Made by a program: the position numbers and the translations under genes | Virus record (IMG/VR): IMGVR_UViG_3300042451_001197 | Location: 1 to 64,000 of that record | Reading direction: 5' to 3' (one strand) | Source: a virus | DNA: 64,000 nt | The notes under the pieces: generated by a model | What the model was told of the DNA's origin: nothing | Seen by the model: only the letters and a program-made list of their open reading frames with translations | Databases searched by the model: none | In this document: piece by piece, positions 44,871-58,397 of the stretch | Numbering within the stretch: position 1 is the stretch's first letter | Layout of the letters: each line of letters begins with the position of its first letter

Positions 44871-44936
44871 AATTTATAAATATAAATAAATTAACTATTT
44901 ATTTATATTTATAAATAAATTAACTATTTATTACAT

Positions 44937-49596: not shown

Positions 49597-50030
49597 ATTC
49601 TTATTTTAATCATAAATACAAATATAAGAATTTCCTTAAAATTTTTCCAGAATTTTTTTTTCAGTTTTACACGCCTTTAGAAATATGGGGGATTTTTCTT
49701 AAAAATTTTTTCCAGATTTTTTTTACATATACTTTGCAAAAGGGATTAAGGCGGGTTTTTACAAGTCAAAATGTCATATATAGGGGGGGATACGGGGGAG
49801 GGAGGGGGTATACCCCCATATACCCCCACTCAGAGGGGAGGTATGTCATACTATTTGGTCTTTTAACCCCCCTACCAATTAGGTCTTCTTATAAGTAAGA
49901 TATGGGGGTGATGTAATTACAATGACATAACCAAATAAACTTATCAACATATAATCCACCATGCCAAATATTGTTAATAAGTTATAATGTTAATAACTAT
50001 TAATACATTTTTATTTGGTGGGGGAGAATA
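49597..50030. other. Non-coding strand-switch region, candidate replication origin or packaging/terminus site
   Basis: Divergent gene blocks; G4 motif 49783-49808; palindrome 49804-49817; TTATCAACA and 2x TGTTAATAA; ~29-bp direct repeat. Confidence 0.45.
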
Positions 50031-54698: not shown

Positions 54699-55010
54699 AT
54701 GAAATTCGAGATAAGTGATAATAAGTTGGAGAAGGTTGTCTTTAAGTATTTGGAAGGTAAGAACTTTATCATTAGGGAAACCCCTTATGATTATTACTTT
54801 TTGGAAAACGAGGGCGATAAATATGTTCAAATTAGAATCAGAAAAAATGATATGGTTTGTTTTATTTATTACAAATTAAGTGAAGAAATTGAATCGTTTT
54901 TTTCAATTGAATTTCCTATGGTTAAAGATGTTTTAAAAAAATATGTTGAGAATATCCTAAATATTAAAGTATCTAAAACATTTTTATCTCCAACTATTTT
55001 AATTGCGTAG
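54699..55010 (+). CDS. Paralog-family protein
   Basis: MKFEISDNKLEKVVFKYLE...YVENILNIKVSKT. Confidence 0.75.
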   Translation: MKFEISDNKLEKVVFKYLEGKNFIIRETPYDYYFLENEGDKYVQIRIRKNDMVCFIYYKLSEEIESFFSIEFPMVKDVLKKYVENILNIKVSKTFLSPTILIA

Positions 55011-55030
55011 TTGAGAATACCTTAAATTAA
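54945..55030 (+). repeat. CRISPR-like mini-array 1: repeat, 30-nt spacer, half repeat
   Basis: GTTGAGAATATCCTAAATATTAAAGTATCTAAAAC / ATTTTTATCTCCAACTATTTTAATTGCGTA / GTTGAGAATACCTTAAAT. Confidence 0.7.
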
Positions 55031-55046
55031 TCTATTTATGTAATAA

Positions 55047-55373
55047 ATGAAATTTTTAATAACAGAAAATAAATTGGATAATATAATCTTTCAGTATTTG
55101 GATAATAAGAACTTTATCATTAAAGAAACTCCTTATGATTATTACTTTTTAGAAAACGAAGATGATGAATATCTTCAGATTAGAGTTAGAAAAAGTGATA
55201 TGGAGTGTTCTTTATTCTATGATTTAACCGAAGAAATTAAATCATTTTTTTCAATTAATAAACTTAAAATCAAAGATGTTTTAACAAGATATGTTGAGGA
55301 GACCTTAAACATTAAAGTTTCTCACGTATGGATGGATGGGTCGTTACACATCTCGATGTTAAAAAAGGGTTAA
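55047..55373 (+). CDS. Paralog-family protein
   Basis: MKFLITENKLDNIIFQYLD...YVEETLNIKVS. Confidence 0.75.
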   Translation: MKFLITENKLDNIIFQYLDNKNFIIKETPYDYYFLENEDDEYLQIRVRKSDMECSLFYDLTEEIKSFFSINKLKIKDVLTRYVEETLNIKVSHVWMDGSLHISMLKKG

Positions 55374-55380
55374 AATATTA
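55293..55380 (+). repeat. CRISPR-like mini-array 2 (degenerate)
   Basis: GTTGAGGAGACCTTAAACATTAAAGTTTCTCACGT / 30 nt / GTTAAAAAAGGGTTAAAATATTA. Confidence 0.5.
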
Positions 55381-55392
55381 TATTTATGTTAT

Positions 55393-55749
55393 ATGAAATT
55401 CTTAATCACCGAAAATAAATTGGATAGGATTATTGATTCTTTTATCACCAAACAATTTGAAAATTTGGAACATATTAAAGAAGGTAATTTGGTTGTTTGG
55501 GTTGACCCTGATAAAAAACCATATGTACTTATTAGACACGATGATAATGGTGATTACGATATTAATATTTTGGAAAGTATTTATTTTTTGATTAGTGATA
55601 TGTTTTCTATTAAAGAACTTGAAGATGTGGAGAAATACTTATTAAAATGGTTTGAAAAACACACGGGGATGATTGCCGATGTTGTTTTCGCATTTGATAA
55701 CGATATAACCTATGAAGAAATTATTAGTATATATATTAAAGGTGCCTAA
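55393..55749 (+). CDS. Paralog-family protein
   Basis: MKFLITENKLDRII...MFSI...KWFE. Confidence 0.7.
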   Translation: MKFLITENKLDRIIDSFITKQFENLEHIKEGNLVVWVDPDKKPYVLIRHDDNGDYDINILESIYFLISDMFSIKELEDVEKYLLKWFEKHTGMIADVVFAFDNDITYEEIISIYIKGA

Positions 55750-55803
55750 CACCAATAAAGAATTTTACCGGTTTTTCAATTTATTGATAATACCTTAAAT
55801 TAA
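55732..55803 (+). repeat. CRISPR-like mini-array 3 (3' half repeat, 30-nt spacer, 5' half repeat)
   Basis: TATATTAAAGGTGCCTAACAC / CAATAAAGAATTTTACCGGTTTTTCAATTT / ATTGATAATACCTTAAAT. Confidence 0.6.
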
Positions 55804-55819
55804 TGTATTTATGTAATAT

Positions 55820-56167
55820 ATGAAATTCTTAATCACCGAAAATAAACTTACCAAAGTTATTCAAAAATATATTAATTTTAAAACTAATGACCCTGAATTT
55901 AATTGGGTGGATAAAATTGTTATTGAACGTGGAACAACTGAAGGAATTGGTTCTGATATATTCCCCCTGTATACTTACAAAGTTTATTTTAAAGAAGATA
56001 ATCCCGATTACGAATCACAATTAAAATTATGGCATGTTATATCTTCCGCCCATAAGTTATTATTTCAATCGGATAATGAGGGAAATCCTGTGGCTTATTT
56101 TACCACATCTTCCATTAAACCTGATGGTTCAACTGATTCATTACCAAGCTATCAAAGTAAAAGTTAA
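55820..56167 (+). CDS. ITE-leader protein
   Basis: MKFLITENKL; 5' DNA identical to that of 55393, body different. Confidence 0.7.
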   Translation: MKFLITENKLTKVIQKYINFKTNDPEFNWVDKIVIERGTTEGIGSDIFPLYTYKVYFKEDNPDYESQLKLWHVISSAHKLLFQSDNEGNPVAYFTTSSIKPDGSTDSLPSYQSKS

Positions 56168-56183
56168 TGCATATTTATACCAT

Positions 56184-56504
56184 ATGAAATTCGAGATAAA
56201 TAGTGATAAATTGGGGCAGGTAATTTTTAAGTATTTGACTATTAAATTATCTATTAAAGAAACTCCCGACGGTTATTATTTTTCAGAAGATGGAAATAAT
56301 GCACATATTGTGGTTAGAAAAGACAATATGATTTGTTATGTTAGTATTGATTTTTTGGATGAAATTGAATCATTTTTTTCTATTGAATATCCTTACTCTA
56401 TAGATTTTGTTAGTGAATACGTTGAAAATATTTTAGGTGTTAACTTGCTCAGGACTGTACCATATCTTAAAAGTTGGATTGTTCCTCCCCCTGATAATAA
56501 TTAA
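56184..56504 (+). CDS. Paralog-family protein (start revised)
   Basis: MKFEINSDKLGQVIFKYL; TATTTAT at 56172-56178. Confidence 0.72.
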   Translation: MKFEINSDKLGQVIFKYLTIKLSIKETPDGYYFSEDGNNAHIVVRKDNMICYVSIDFLDEIESFFSIEYPYSIDFVSEYVENILGVNLLRTVPYLKSWIVPPPDNN

Positions 56505-56553
56505 TTAAAATTTTGTATTTGTTTATTTGATAATTTATCATTATCTTTGTATT

Positions 56554-57276
56554 ATGATTTCAGATAAAATTAAAAAAATTATATTTGATAAATTATATAA
56601 GGATTTATCTAATGTTGAGATTATTCCCCACGAAAATAGTATTTGGTTTATAGATAGGGAAGAGAAGTATTGGTATTTTGAATTTACCAAGTCAGGTGAA
56701 TTGTGGTGGAGATATTCTTTCTTTGTTGATTTTTTTCAGTTTTTTTCTATGGAATATAAGGAGTTTGTACCGATTATTAGTGAATGGGTGGAAGAGGTTT
56801 TGAATTCTAAGGTGTTTGAAACAGGGAAATTATTTTACGACTATGCACCTGAAGTGGAAGAGATATTAAATTCTAAGGTATCTACAACTGAAAGTTTATC
56901 CTTTAAGTCAGTAGGGTTGGTGGAAGAGGTATTAAATTTTAAGGTGTCTACAACTACTTCTAAATTTTCAAAAAAAAGCATTATGGTGGAAGAGGTATTA
57001 AATTCTAAGGTGTCTACAACTACGAAAAGACATTCCCCACATATCAGACAGGTGGAAAAAGTGTTAAATTCTAAGGTGTCTACAACAATTCAGGCACAAT
57101 TTCTTCTTCAGTCTCGGGTGGAAGAGATATTAAATTCTAAGGTATCGACAACTTGGTTAAATGGTTGTAATAGGGATGAAAAGGTTGGGGAAGTATTGGA
57201 TTGTAAGGTGACTGAAACCAAATTAGGTCCTACAAGTAAATTTTATGAAATAAATAAGGTTTTATCTCAAACATAA
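56554..57276 (+). CDS. Paralog-family domain fused to seven 22-aa repeats with hypervariable 10-aa inserts (start revised)
   Basis: TATCTTTG 4 nt before ATG 56554; VEEVLNSKVSTT repeats. Confidence 0.8.
   Translation: MISDKIKKIIFDKLYKDLSNVEIIPHENSIWFIDREEKYWYFEFTKSGELWWRYSFFVDFFQFFSMEYKEFVPIISEWVEEVLNSKVFETGKLFYDYAPEVEEILNSKVSTTESLSFKSVGLVEEVLNFKVSTTTSKFSKKSIMVEEVLNSKVSTTTKRHSPHIRQVEKVLNSKVSTTIQAQFLLQSRVEEILNSKVSTTWLNGCNRDEKVGEVLDCKVTETKLGPTSKFYEINKVLSQT
56787..57248 (+). CRISPR. CRISPR-like array inside a CDS: 7 x 36-nt repeat plus 30-nt unique spacers
   Basis: Consensus GGTGGAAGAGGTATTAAATTCTAAGGTGTCTACAAC at 56787, 56853, 56919, 56985, 57051, 57117, 57183; exact 66-nt period; unrelated spacers; no cas gene in the window. 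Confidence 0.55.
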
Positions 57277-57307
57277 CTTAATTCAACATCTCATATATTT
57301 ATATGAT

Positions 57308-57616
57308 ATGAAATTCGAGATTAGTGGTGGTAAATTGGAACAAGTAATATTTAAATACTTGGACGGTAAAAACTTTACCATTAGGGAAACTCCAACCAAT
57401 TATTATTTTTTTGGTGAGCCTCCACACCATTACGCAACAATAAATGTTAGAAAAAGTGATGAGAAGTGTTTTATATATCCAAACCTAATTGAACATCTAT
57501 CTTCTTTTTTTTCTATTAGTGATATAATGTCAACTGACATTATATTAAAATATACCGAAAGTAAACTGAATAATGAATCAACTTCATTATCTCTAAAACT
57601 ATATGGTGATAATTAG
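57308..57616 (+). CDS. Paralog-family protein
   Basis: MKFEISGGKLEQVIFKYLD. Confidence 0.75.
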   Translation: MKFEISGGKLEQVIFKYLDGKNFTIRETPTNYYFFGEPPHHYATINVRKSDEKCFIYPNLIEHLSSFFSISDIMSTDIILKYTESKLNNESTSLSLKLYGDN

Positions 57617-57993
57617 TCGTTCACCCTCTCTATATTAACCATTTTACCATCAGTAAACTTAGCTGAGAACTCAAACCAAGTTTCATTAACATTTGTGTAG
57701 AATCTAACATATCCGTGGTGATTAATTGTCTCAAGTCTTTCGTTAACTCTTCTTAAACAACCAAAAAGATTAGATATTCCAACCTCATTCATATATGGTC
57801 TTTCTTCATTTGGAACTTCTTCCATTTCAAACCTGTTAACTTTAATCTCACCTTCATTGGTTATGTAAATTTCAGTTAATTCTCTGTCAAAATCCTTTGT
57901 CTGAAATTCGTGATTTTCACCAATTAGTTCCTTTTCTTCTTTTGTTATTGGAAGTAAATTTGTATCAATAAATAAGTAATCGAACATTCCCAT
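57613..57993 (-). CDS. Hypothetical phage protein
   Basis: MGMFD...FQTKD...FYT...AKFTDG; TACCTTTG promoter upstream. Confidence 0.7.
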   Translation of the reverse strand: MGMFDYLFIDTNLLPITKEEKELIGENHEFQTKDFDRELTEIYITNEGEIKVNRFEMEEVPNEERPYMNEVGISNLFGCLRRVNERLETINHHGYVRFYTNVNETWFEFSAKFTDGKMVNIERVND

Positions 57994-58052
57994 ATCTTTT
58001 TCTTTTTTACAAAGGTAATAAAATATTATGGGAAAAACAAATATTTATTAAT

Positions 58053-58379
58053 ATGAATTTTGAGATTAACGAAAACAAATTACAAAATATTGTCTTCAAG
58101 TATGTGGACAATAAAAACTATGTCATTAAAGAAACTGATAATGATTATTACTTTATAGAAAACGAAGAAGATGAGTATGCTCAGATTAGAATTAGAAAAA
58201 GTGATAAAGTTTGTGTTATTTATCACAAATTAACTGAAGAAATTGAATCGTTTTTTTCAATTGAATACCCTATGGTTGAAGATGTTTTAACGAGATATGT
58301 TGAGAATACCATAAATATTGAGGTGTCTAAAACCCTATTAGGTATAAATCTTAAAGCAGAAGCGTTGAGAATACCTTAA
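58053..58379 (+). CDS. Paralog-family protein
   Basis: MNFEINENKLQNIVFKYVD...YVENTINIEVSKT. Confidence 0.75.
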   Translation: MNFEINENKLQNIVFKYVDNKNYVIKETDNDYYFIENEEDEYAQIRIRKSDKVCVIYHKLTEEIESFFSIEYPMVEDVLTRYVENTINIEVSKTLLGINLKAEALRIP

Positions 58380-58384
58380 ATTAA
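58299..58384 (+). repeat. CRISPR-like mini-array 4
   Basis: GTTGAGAATACCATAAATATTGAGGTGTCTAAAAC / CCTATTAGGTATAAATCTTAAAGCAGAAGC / GTTGAGAATACCTTAAAT. Confidence 0.72.
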
Positions 58385-58397
58385 ACTATTTATCATT

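Follow-up and report, generated by a model that had tools for sequence, protein, structure and literature searches.

CRISPR-style units of repeat, unrelated segment and half repeat at the ends of four small jumbo-phage genes

In an uncultured jumbo phage, four small genes each end in a CRISPR-style unit, in which the DNA encoding the last helix of the protein doubles as a 35/36-nt repeat and is followed by an unrelated segment of approximately 30 nt and then by a 5' half repeat that closes the array. The window analysed here is a stretch of 64,000 nucleotides from a 106.8-kb record, and Bacteroidota-type TAnnTTTG boxes upstream of 21 genes give an indication of the host phylum. The best reading of the data is that CRISPR-type arrays sit within the 3' ends of a multi-copy family of genes of approximately 100 aa in this jumbo-phage lineage. 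On balance we lean towards the view that the four units are one-spacer CRISPR-type arrays, and that CRISPR-type insertion together with recombination rewrites the C-terminal tails of these proteins.

All four units lie on the plus strand. Paralog A (103 aa; 54699–55010) carries its full repeat of 35 nt, or 36 nt with the preceding T, at 54945–54979, where it encodes VENILNIKVSKT; the 30-nt spacer (54980–55009; 27% GC) encodes the private tail FLSPTILIA, and the G of the TAG stop codon (55008–55010) is the first base of the untranslated 18-nt terminal 5' half repeat (55010–55027), with the TATTTAT of the next gene at 55033–55039. Paralog B (108 aa; 55047–55373) is a tandem duplicate of A with a period of 348 nt. 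Its full repeat (55293–55327), which encodes VEETLNIKVSH, has diverged by nine mismatches from the composite consensus proposed in the first-pass annotation, and is followed by a 30-nt spacer of 47% GC (55328–55357), retained at 27/30 positions in L007, a relative of 94% identity, and by a diverged half repeat (55358–55376) read out of frame as MLKKG-stop, with TATTTAT at 55381–55387. Paralog C (118 aa; 55393–55749) is a divergent member of the family in which the first repeat consists of the 3' half only, with one extra base (55733–55752), and spans the stop codon at 55747–55749; no part of the 30-nt spacer (55753–55782), identical in L007 and L048, is translated, and the 5' half repeat (55783–55800) precedes a TATTTAT at 55806–55812. 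In paralog D (108 aa; 58053–58379) the full repeat (58299–58333) encodes VENTINIEVSKT, and the 30-nt spacer (58334–58363) leads into a 5' half repeat (58364–58381) whose out-of-frame translation is LRIP-stop and which contains the TAA stop codon (58377–58379), with TATTTAT at 58387–58393. The same strand also holds a long-array gene (56554–57276) which is entirely in frame and comprises a 78-aa domain, seven repeats with a period of exactly 66 nt (56787–57218) and a degenerate terminal half repeat (57250–57276).

These repeats far exceed chance, as GTTGAGAATACCTTAAAT, with up to three mismatches, matches only at 54945, 55010, 55293, 55783, 58299 and 58364, all on the plus strand, while 0.33 matches are expected in shuffled sequence, in which six were never reached. 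Neither a further copy of this 18-mer nor a reverse-strand (anti-repeat) copy was found in the 106.8-kb record. The repeat units described in the first-pass annotation are therefore real, as is most of their detail: the three full 35-nt copies (54945, 55293 and 58299) encode the family motif; the distance from full to half copy is 65 nt in the units at 54945 and 58299, the half copies matching their own full copies at 16/18 and 17/18 positions; the second copy is not translated like the first, lying after the stop codon (units at 54945 and 55732) or out of frame (units at 55293 and 58299); the TATTTAT of the next gene begins 5 nt past each half copy; and the composite agrees with the long-array repeat at 24/35 positions, against a claimed 25 or so. 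Of the two variant half copies that had been proposed, the one at 55783 is sound (16/18) and the one at 55358 is weak (approximately 12/18), and the 30-nt boundary of unit B is fixed by homology with the tandem unit and not by its own sequence. The 65-nt period common to A and B counts only once as evidence, one unit being a tandem duplicate of the other. The spacer of exactly 30 nt holds in the window but not in relatives, in which 30–32 nt follow a 35-nt repeat. The hairpin, likewise, belongs to the composite, which folds at −8.5 kcal/mol (z −3.9), and not to any real copy, those of the window having minimum free energies of 0.0, −5.5 and −4.6 kcal/mol (z +1.0 to −1.3). The spacers are unique, as had been stated: among the three paralogous units compared, gene bodies are 77–80% identical while the 30-nt segments share 33–40% pairwise identity, which is at random level (0.45 ± 0.07 for random 30-mers).

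The full repeat is the DNA coding for the conserved last helix of the family, YVExxLNxKVSxT, and this C-terminal motif is conserved at the protein level in 18/18 paralogs, including those without a DNA repeat, while the repeat sequence varies from paralog to paralog. Since the period in the window is 65 nt and not 66, the cassette rewrites only the last 8–14 residues (or falls after the stop codon) and the half repeat is untranslated. Mini-arrays are also found in relatives, each duplicating the version of the motif carried by its own gene, with periods of 65–67 nt and downstream repeats that are not translated. In L015 the arrangement is R-32-R-31-R', with repeats identical at 35/35 positions, unrelated spacers and a stop codon where repeat 2 begins; the L017 mini-array has a 65-nt period and a complete second repeat, that of L011 has a 66-nt period and a stop codon within the spacer, and that of L007 has a 67-nt period. 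The data show that the array-making process does not itself maintain the reading frame. In L007 the spacer of the unit at 58299 has been wholly exchanged for an unrelated segment (32 versus 30 nt) between flanks of approximately 97% identity, so that the site for swapping C-terminal tips envisaged in the first-pass annotation is seen directly once, and the spacer is a discrete, exchangeable cassette.

The window units are interpreted as one-spacer arrays because they match the end of the long in-frame arrays of related phages. We compared 30 distinct long arrays with 145 spacers, every one of which is 30 nt long and every frame of which is open; the last full repeat is followed, exactly 30 nt further on, by a 5' half repeat in 27 of 28 arrays (16.7/19 matches), the 3' half of that terminal repeat being at random level (5.2/17). 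The long-array spacers are foreign in composition to the phage, with 41% GC, a GC3 of 38% against 21% for the phage and flat codon usage, and the 87 distinct spacers fall into 79 families that retain no mutual similarity. Third codon positions in the repeats are 2.6 times more conserved than those in the adjacent domain. Growth of an array at one end is seen in L076, whose array is that of L075/L078 plus one domain-proximal unit whose repeat is a copy of the first-repeat variant; across the long arrays, the first position is richer in unique spacers, and spacers towards the 3' end are conserved. The inserts were also considered as targets of a diversity-generating retroelement, which was rejected on the grounds that no reverse transcriptase (RVT_1) is present in the five phage records examined (G000–G004, one of them 100% complete) and that the spacers differ at every base, not at adenines alone.

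The geometry of the units (1.5 repeats each, with a 35/36-nt repeat, a 29–31-nt spacer and a half repeat) is that of CRISPR arrays, and the closest known counterparts are the type VI-B arrays of Flavobacterium. The phage repeats match the VI-B direct repeat (DR) at 19–24 of 36 positions, where random 36-mers give 9.6 ± 2.6 and a probability of 2e-4 for at least 20, and the array-bearing paralogs are the most DR-like among 15 tested. The last 12 nt (3') of the long-form repeat are identical to the DR, but the overall identity is short of the near-identity seen within a repeat family, and no repeat closer than 24/36 was found in 185,579 species representatives. In Flavobacterium columnare, F. 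covae and Flavobacterium sp. J27, the Cas13b arrays are loaded in trans by a type II-C Cas1-Cas2 complex, and there is precedent for orphan arrays supplied in trans (Hoikkala et al. 2021, PMC8092290). Those arrays share with the phage arrays a 36-nt repeat, 29–31-nt spacers, 65–67-nt periods, the absence of an adjacent cas1 and growth at one end by copying of the first repeat, and they themselves contain 20-nt half repeats. They differ in that genuine type VI-B arrays adjoin Cas13b, whereas for the phage units neither effector nor protospacer was found; the phage repeat, moreover, codes for a conserved protein helix, varies among paralogous genes and lacks the internal stem of the DR (which folds at −10.9 kcal/mol, z −3.0) even in its long form, and the long arrays are kept open and translated.

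A second parallel is provided by the spontaneous 'neo-CRISPR' loci that result from off-target Cas1-Cas2 integration (Nivala, Shipman and Church 2018, cited in PMC7054753). There, a lone pseudo-repeat in ordinary DNA reportedly turns into repeat-spacer-repeat, and an origin of this type would account for each unit copying the motif of its own gene. The neo-CRISPR work reportedly employed overexpressed E. coli type I-E proteins with the host chromosome as target, whereas the events considered here would have taken place in phage genes, been inherited and ended in a half repeat. The virus-borne mini-CRISPR arrays (Medvedeva et al. 2019, PMC6858448) and the cas-less arrays of huge phages (Al-Shayeb et al. 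2020, PMC7162821) resemble the present units in placing one or two repeat-flanked spacers on a viral genome, here that of a jumbo phage, devoid of adaptation genes; they are, however, non-coding, their repeats are identical to those of the host and their spacers have matches in rival viruses or host genes, and none of these traits was found here. Hypervariable repeat proteins uncovered by repeat mining (Altae-Tran et al. 2020, PMC10392669) also combine a constant repeat with hypervariable inserts within a protein, but none of the five systems described corresponds to the phage arrays, in which each insert is an entire, unrelated cassette of 30 nt with foreign composition.

We propose that the units arise as the long arrays would grow, namely by domain-proximal insertion of a repeat and approximately 30 nt with copying of the first repeat. 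This mode of insertion is the signature of Cas1-Cas2 integration, and since the phages carry no cas1 the integrase would presumably be that of the host; neither Cas1 (PF01867) nor a Cas13b homologue was detected in the five phage records. Recombination from repeat to repeat would afterwards exchange and remove cassettes. Raw insertion would give inserts of 29–32 nt, from which selection for an open frame would retain the stop-free inserts of 30 nt in translated arrays. Several observations do not sit easily with this scheme: Cas1-Cas2 integration is expected to duplicate the whole repeat, whereas the window units stop at a sharp half repeat; the repeats differ between paralogs, so that one and the same integrase would need to tolerate a range of pseudo-repeats; and the CRISPR-type reading is further weakened by the weak half copy of unit B and by the failure to find either a cas gene or a protospacer. 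The protospacer search was run for all four window spacers and nothing matched, exact 26-nt cores returning only the orthologous site in IMG/VR. Searches for protospacers gave only noise in INPHARED and none among the fetched loci, in a 240-kb relative compared with itself, in two metagenome scans or in approximately 800 sampled Flavobacterium/Flavobacteriaceae genomes; the protospacer searches took in few spacers and small samples.

It is unlikely, in our judgement, that the units are purely the remnant of a protein repeat in which slippage or unequal crossing-over duplicated the motif and a 10-aa linker in tandem, as in the long in-frame genes, the likeness to CRISPR being coincidental. The window units would then be leftovers of 1.5 repeats with a 1-nt deletion, and the linkers would have been diversified by selection and shuffled by recombination. 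Conservation of the motif in all 18 paralogs, with or without a DNA repeat, agrees with such an origin, as do the strictly in-frame, open long arrays and the failure to find a cas gene or protospacer, while recombination within repeats would account for the cassette swaps inside arrays and for the half-repeat junction of unit C. An in-frame tandem protein repeat has a period that is a multiple of three and every copy translated; this is so in the long arrays but not in the window units, and the 65–67-nt periods are not multiples of three. Duplication and divergence should moreover leave AT-rich synonymous sites, whereas the spacers are foreign in GC3 and codon usage and are mutually dissimilar. 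Also at odds with a protein remnant are the L015 repeats, identical though untranslated and separated by unrelated spacers, the addition of a unit with unrelated DNA at one end in L076, and the similarity to the VI-B repeat, with its probability of about 2e-4.

We do not think that the four units act as guide or decoy RNAs. The first-pass annotation had suggested a protein with its own guide or a CRISPR mimic, of which the CRISPR-type architecture is borne out and the guide or anti-CRISPR role is unsupported. Co-transcription of the units with their gene and processing by a host Cas13b or Cas9, which would yield either crRNAs of the phage's choosing, aimed at competitors or at the host, or Racr-like anti-CRISPR RNAs serving as decoys that soak up the effector, appears improbable. 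The repeat does have the sense orientation of the VI-B DR, with the 3' 12 nt in common, and L015 and L017 keep untranslated repeats intact. A type II crRNA consists of a spacer and the first 18–19 nt of the next repeat, a form which the layout of the units resembles. A Cas13b crRNA, in contrast, requires the DR to be complete on the 3' side of the spacer, and this is not so in the units; furthermore, no real window copy folds as a hairpin, the DR internal stem is missing from the long repeats, the repeats differ between paralogs, no protospacer was found, and the record contains no anti-repeat copy. Racr candidates are common across phages, none being reported for type VI, and these solitary repeat units share with the present units a repeat-like sequence in a cas-less phage (Camara-Wilpert et al. 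2023, PMC10651486). Solitary repeat units are, however, non-coding and immediately 3' of a promoter, mimic the host repeat closely and retain its hairpin, whereas the phage repeat lies within a gene with its half copy upstream of the promoter, no hairpin is kept, and the best identity among the repeats compared is 24/36.

Least probable, and largely refuted, is a promoter reading, in which the half repeat would serve the next gene as the upstream (−33) portion of its promoter and would resemble the coding motif only incidentally: a TTG, the −33 element mentioned in PMC8092290, does lie 19 nt ahead of TATTTAT[G/C] in three of the four half copies, as in the Bacteroidota −33/−7 spacing, but the 18-mer occurs nowhere else in the 106.8 kb, including upstream of unrelated genes, a finding that the first-pass annotation had named as refuting its proposal, the 46 TATTTAT-N3-9-ATG sites have no conserved upstream TTG or half repeat, and what follows downstream in L015 and L017 is a complete repeat matching its own gene.

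Under the CRISPR-type reading, the net effect is that each of the four genes acquires a C-terminal tip of its own that can be exchanged. More tentatively, a host type II-C Cas1-Cas2 complex may recognise repeat-like coding DNA at the ends of phage genes and write captured DNA of approximately 30 nt into them. If so, the window units would represent the births of arrays or one-spacer states, an insertion of 36 + 30 = 66 nt would preserve the frame while inserts of other lengths would terminate the protein, and the phage lineage would have gained a generator of exchangeable C-terminal peptide cassettes.

Throughout the whole record, matches to the 18-mer GTTGAGAATACCTTAAAT with at most three mismatches are limited to six of the repeat sites listed in the first-pass annotation, at 54945, 55010, 55293, 55783, 58299 and 58364 (chance, 0.33). 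These belong to four units, starting at 54945, 55293, approximately 55732 and 58299, which close small genes of a paralog family of approximately 100 aa, an iterated profile of which detected 18 paralogs in the record. The 35-nt full copies encode the end of the conserved motif (Y/W)VExxLNxKVSxT, and since this motif is kept even where the DNA of the paralogs differs strongly, the full repeat is, on sequence evidence, DNA that codes for a genuine protein element. In an AlphaFold2 model of a family member, the motif closes the last helix of an alpha-beta4-alpha-alpha domain, with a pLDDT of approximately 70 over residues 1-86 and below 30 in the array part. No Pfam or PHROG family matched the domain above noise, and the top match of a fold search with the domain model (Z 5.1) was likewise within noise. 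Within IMG/VR, the mini repeat was found in just one contig.

Approximately 30 related IMG/VR loci, retrieved by family profile and repeat pattern, contain 30 different long arrays, built on a 36-nt repeat (consensus GGTGGAAGAGGTATTAAATCATAAGGTATCCACAAC) and comprising 145 spacers, 87 of them distinct. Every long array lies inside an open frame that begins with the 78-aa family domain, the remaining two frames having approximately 10% stops, and the window gene at 56554-57276 belongs to this class. In 27 of 28 arrays a 5′ half repeat is situated exactly 30 nt past the last full repeat (16.7 of 19 matches), and its 3′ half is unrelated (5.2 of 17). Repeat, 30 nt and half repeat thus constitute the standard array end, and the four window units, in which full-copy start and half copy are 65 nt apart at 54945 and 58299, are real CRISPR-type arrays with a single spacer, joined to phage gene ends. 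Of the 13 genes of the family in the 240-kb relative G002, four carry long arrays and not one carries a mini-array. One repeat of locus L008 (5152-5193) contains an in-frame insertion of 6 nt, VEDVLSHNVKVSTT, next to spacers that remain 30 nt long; the insertion is found at an identical place in the arrays of five related phages (L008, L011, L012, L021 and L032).

Relatives have mini-arrays as well, and in each of these the copied motif is the version found in the gene that carries the array. That of L015 reads R-32-R-31-R′, with repeats identical at 35 of 35 positions and a stop codon where repeat 2 begins; that of L017 has a period of 65 and a full second repeat; that of L011 has a period of 66 and a stop codon within the spacer; and that of L007 has a period of 67. 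This layout indicates that downstream repeats are retained untranslated and that insert length varies where the frame is immaterial. The exact 30-nt spacer claimed at the outset holds for the window units and for all 145 long-array spacers, but not for mini-arrays overall, whose inserts measure 29-32 nt. L007 is approximately 90-94% identical to the window and has two spacers in common with it (27/30 and 30/30), while the spacer of unit 58299 has been wholly replaced (32 nt versus 30) between flanks that are approximately 97% identical, in agreement with the earlier proposal of a swappable C-terminal tip.

When 185,579 species representatives were scanned for array-spaced copies of the 12-mer at the 3′ end of the repeat, Flavobacterium columnare, F. 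covae and Flavobacterium sp. J27 proved to have genuine arrays (repeat GTTGGGAAAGCCCTTATTTTGAAGGGTATCTACAAC, spacers of 29-31 nt), the F. columnare array adjoining Cas13b (NF038190, 782 bits). Phage repeats agree with this type VI-B direct repeat at 19-24 of 36 positions, compared to 9.6 ± 2.6 for random phage 36-mers (P(≥20) = 2e-4); no host repeat nearer than 24/36 was found among the same representatives, and of the 15 paralogs tested, those that bear arrays are the most similar to the type VI-B direct repeat. The mini-array periods of 65-67 nt are those of real Flavobacterium VI-B arrays, in which half repeats of 20 nt also occur. Split repeats were noted in the genuine type VI-B loci L053 (4745-5490, F. 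covae) and L052 (1790-3268, Flavobacterium sp. J27), consisting of the 5′ 20 nt, 45-80 nt of other DNA and the 3′ 19 nt, and their break falls at the mid-repeat position of the phage half repeats. In F. columnare, type II-C Cas1-Cas2 supplies spacers in trans to the VI-B array, which lacks cas1, and the repeats of both loci are 36 bp long (PMC8092290). Five phage records contain no Cas1, Cas13b or reverse transcriptase, and the involvement of phage-encoded Cas1 or Cas13b, or of a DGR, was therefore rejected. A degenerate 36/30 repeat array in a Sphingobacterium MAG (L049, 400-2931), beside a sigma-70-like ORF (1008-1820) and a 364-aa ORF (1837-2931), may represent a small RNA-guided system.

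The spacers have a GC content of 41% (47, 42 and 38% by codon position), while that of the adjoining domain is 29% and the GC3 of phage genes is 21%. Their codon usage is flat, AGA accounting for 35% of Arg codons versus 75% in phage genes and CGC for 16% versus 0%; the encoded residue mix is close to random, and 79 unrelated families of spacers can be distinguished. At third codon positions, the repeat varies 2.6 times less than the neighbouring domain. Orthologous arrays have their 3′ spacers in common and differ mostly at the domain-proximal side. Metagenome contig L076 carries the L075/L078 array plus one extra, domain-proximal unit, whose new repeat exactly copies the first-repeat variant; as read from these arrays, a gain of this kind matches the pattern known from CRISPR adaptation. 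A cassette swap within the arrays of the L075/L076/L078 set, together with the half-repeat junction of the unit at approximately 55732, shows that recombination inside repeats acts too. We consider it somewhat more probable than its negation that unrelated DNA is inserted with copying of the repeat and that recombination follows, the visible effect of which would be a private, exchangeable C-terminal tip. Cas1-Cas2 integration, however, would be expected to duplicate the whole repeat, whereas the units end in a sharp half repeat.

That the units are purely remnants of a protein repeat is unlikely. The half copies lie 3′ of the stop codon or in another reading frame, as had been remarked for the second copy. 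Among the three complete units, identity is 77-80% in gene bodies, 69-86% in full repeats and 63-84% in half repeat plus promoter, and the 30-nt segments are 33-40% identical, which is not above random 30-mers (0.45 ± 0.07). A functional guide or decoy RNA, to which the likeness to a Cas13b repeat would lend itself, is quite improbable. The hairpin initially ascribed to the repeat was discarded, as folding is confined to the composite consensus: the actual copies are no more stable than shuffled sequences, and no structure is common to the repeats of relatives. Repeat variants follow protein constraints and have no stem in common. Protospacers, which the first-pass annotation had suggested seeking, did not emerge: none was found in INPHARED or sampled genomes for the spacers tested; exact spacer cores in IMG/VR matched only the arrays themselves and an orthologous site in L048; one metagenome scan returned no matches and another five, every one a phage array; and no self-derived spacers were detected in G002, the whole record (G000) or the fetched loci.

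The sequence ATATTTAT lies 11-13 nt 5′ of 33 starts in G000, including those of the genes after each mini-array. A promoter element can be given hardly any weight as an explanation and was rejected, the half repeat being confined to the six sites and not a general promoter part of unrelated genes. TAnnTTTG, the Bacteroidota -7 element, is located 12 nt 5′ of the ATG in 21 other genes, among them long-array gene 56554, which makes a Bacteroidota host likely; both motif classes leave nearly no 5′ leader. Of 401 Flavobacteriaceae genomes, 3 match a non-array stretch of G002 (L077, 6192-7978) over 45-68 nt at 77-84% identity, and of 401 genomes sampled across Bacteroidota none does, a weak hint to Flavobacteriaceae as host family. 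G000 has 28% GC, and its CheckV completeness of 36% at 106,819 nt indicates a jumbo phage. Other repeats were observed in this record. A 29-nt unit is present 2.1 times (93% matches) at 44872-44932, between the divergently oriented genes 44376 (-) and 44937 (+), of which 44937 belongs to the paralog family. An intergenic TTTCCMAAAAATTTTTTCC-like direct repeat with 63-66 nt spacing lies at 49627-49700 beside GGGG/CCCC hairpins and is kept in several related phages (L007 1112-1148, L008 1641, L024 5480 and L034 4183). Beyond the window, at approximately 97161-97260, the tRNA T-arm-like 18-mer GACAGGATTCGAACCTGT is directly repeated with 80-nt spacing, which suggests a tRNA gene cluster; no tRNA genes were found in the window.

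Our literature search found no paper on CRISPR-type arrays that overlap and extend protein genes. If insertion with repeat copying is indeed responsible, the units would display what the process behind the translated CRISPR-type arrays of jumbo phages yields when selection does not act on it: inserts of 29-32 nt, regardless of frame, with the gene's own repeat copied each time. The mechanism, CRISPR-like and indifferent to frame, would then be separable from the selection that keeps long arrays readable, and arrays would be born at ordinary coding DNA that resembles a host repeat by chance.
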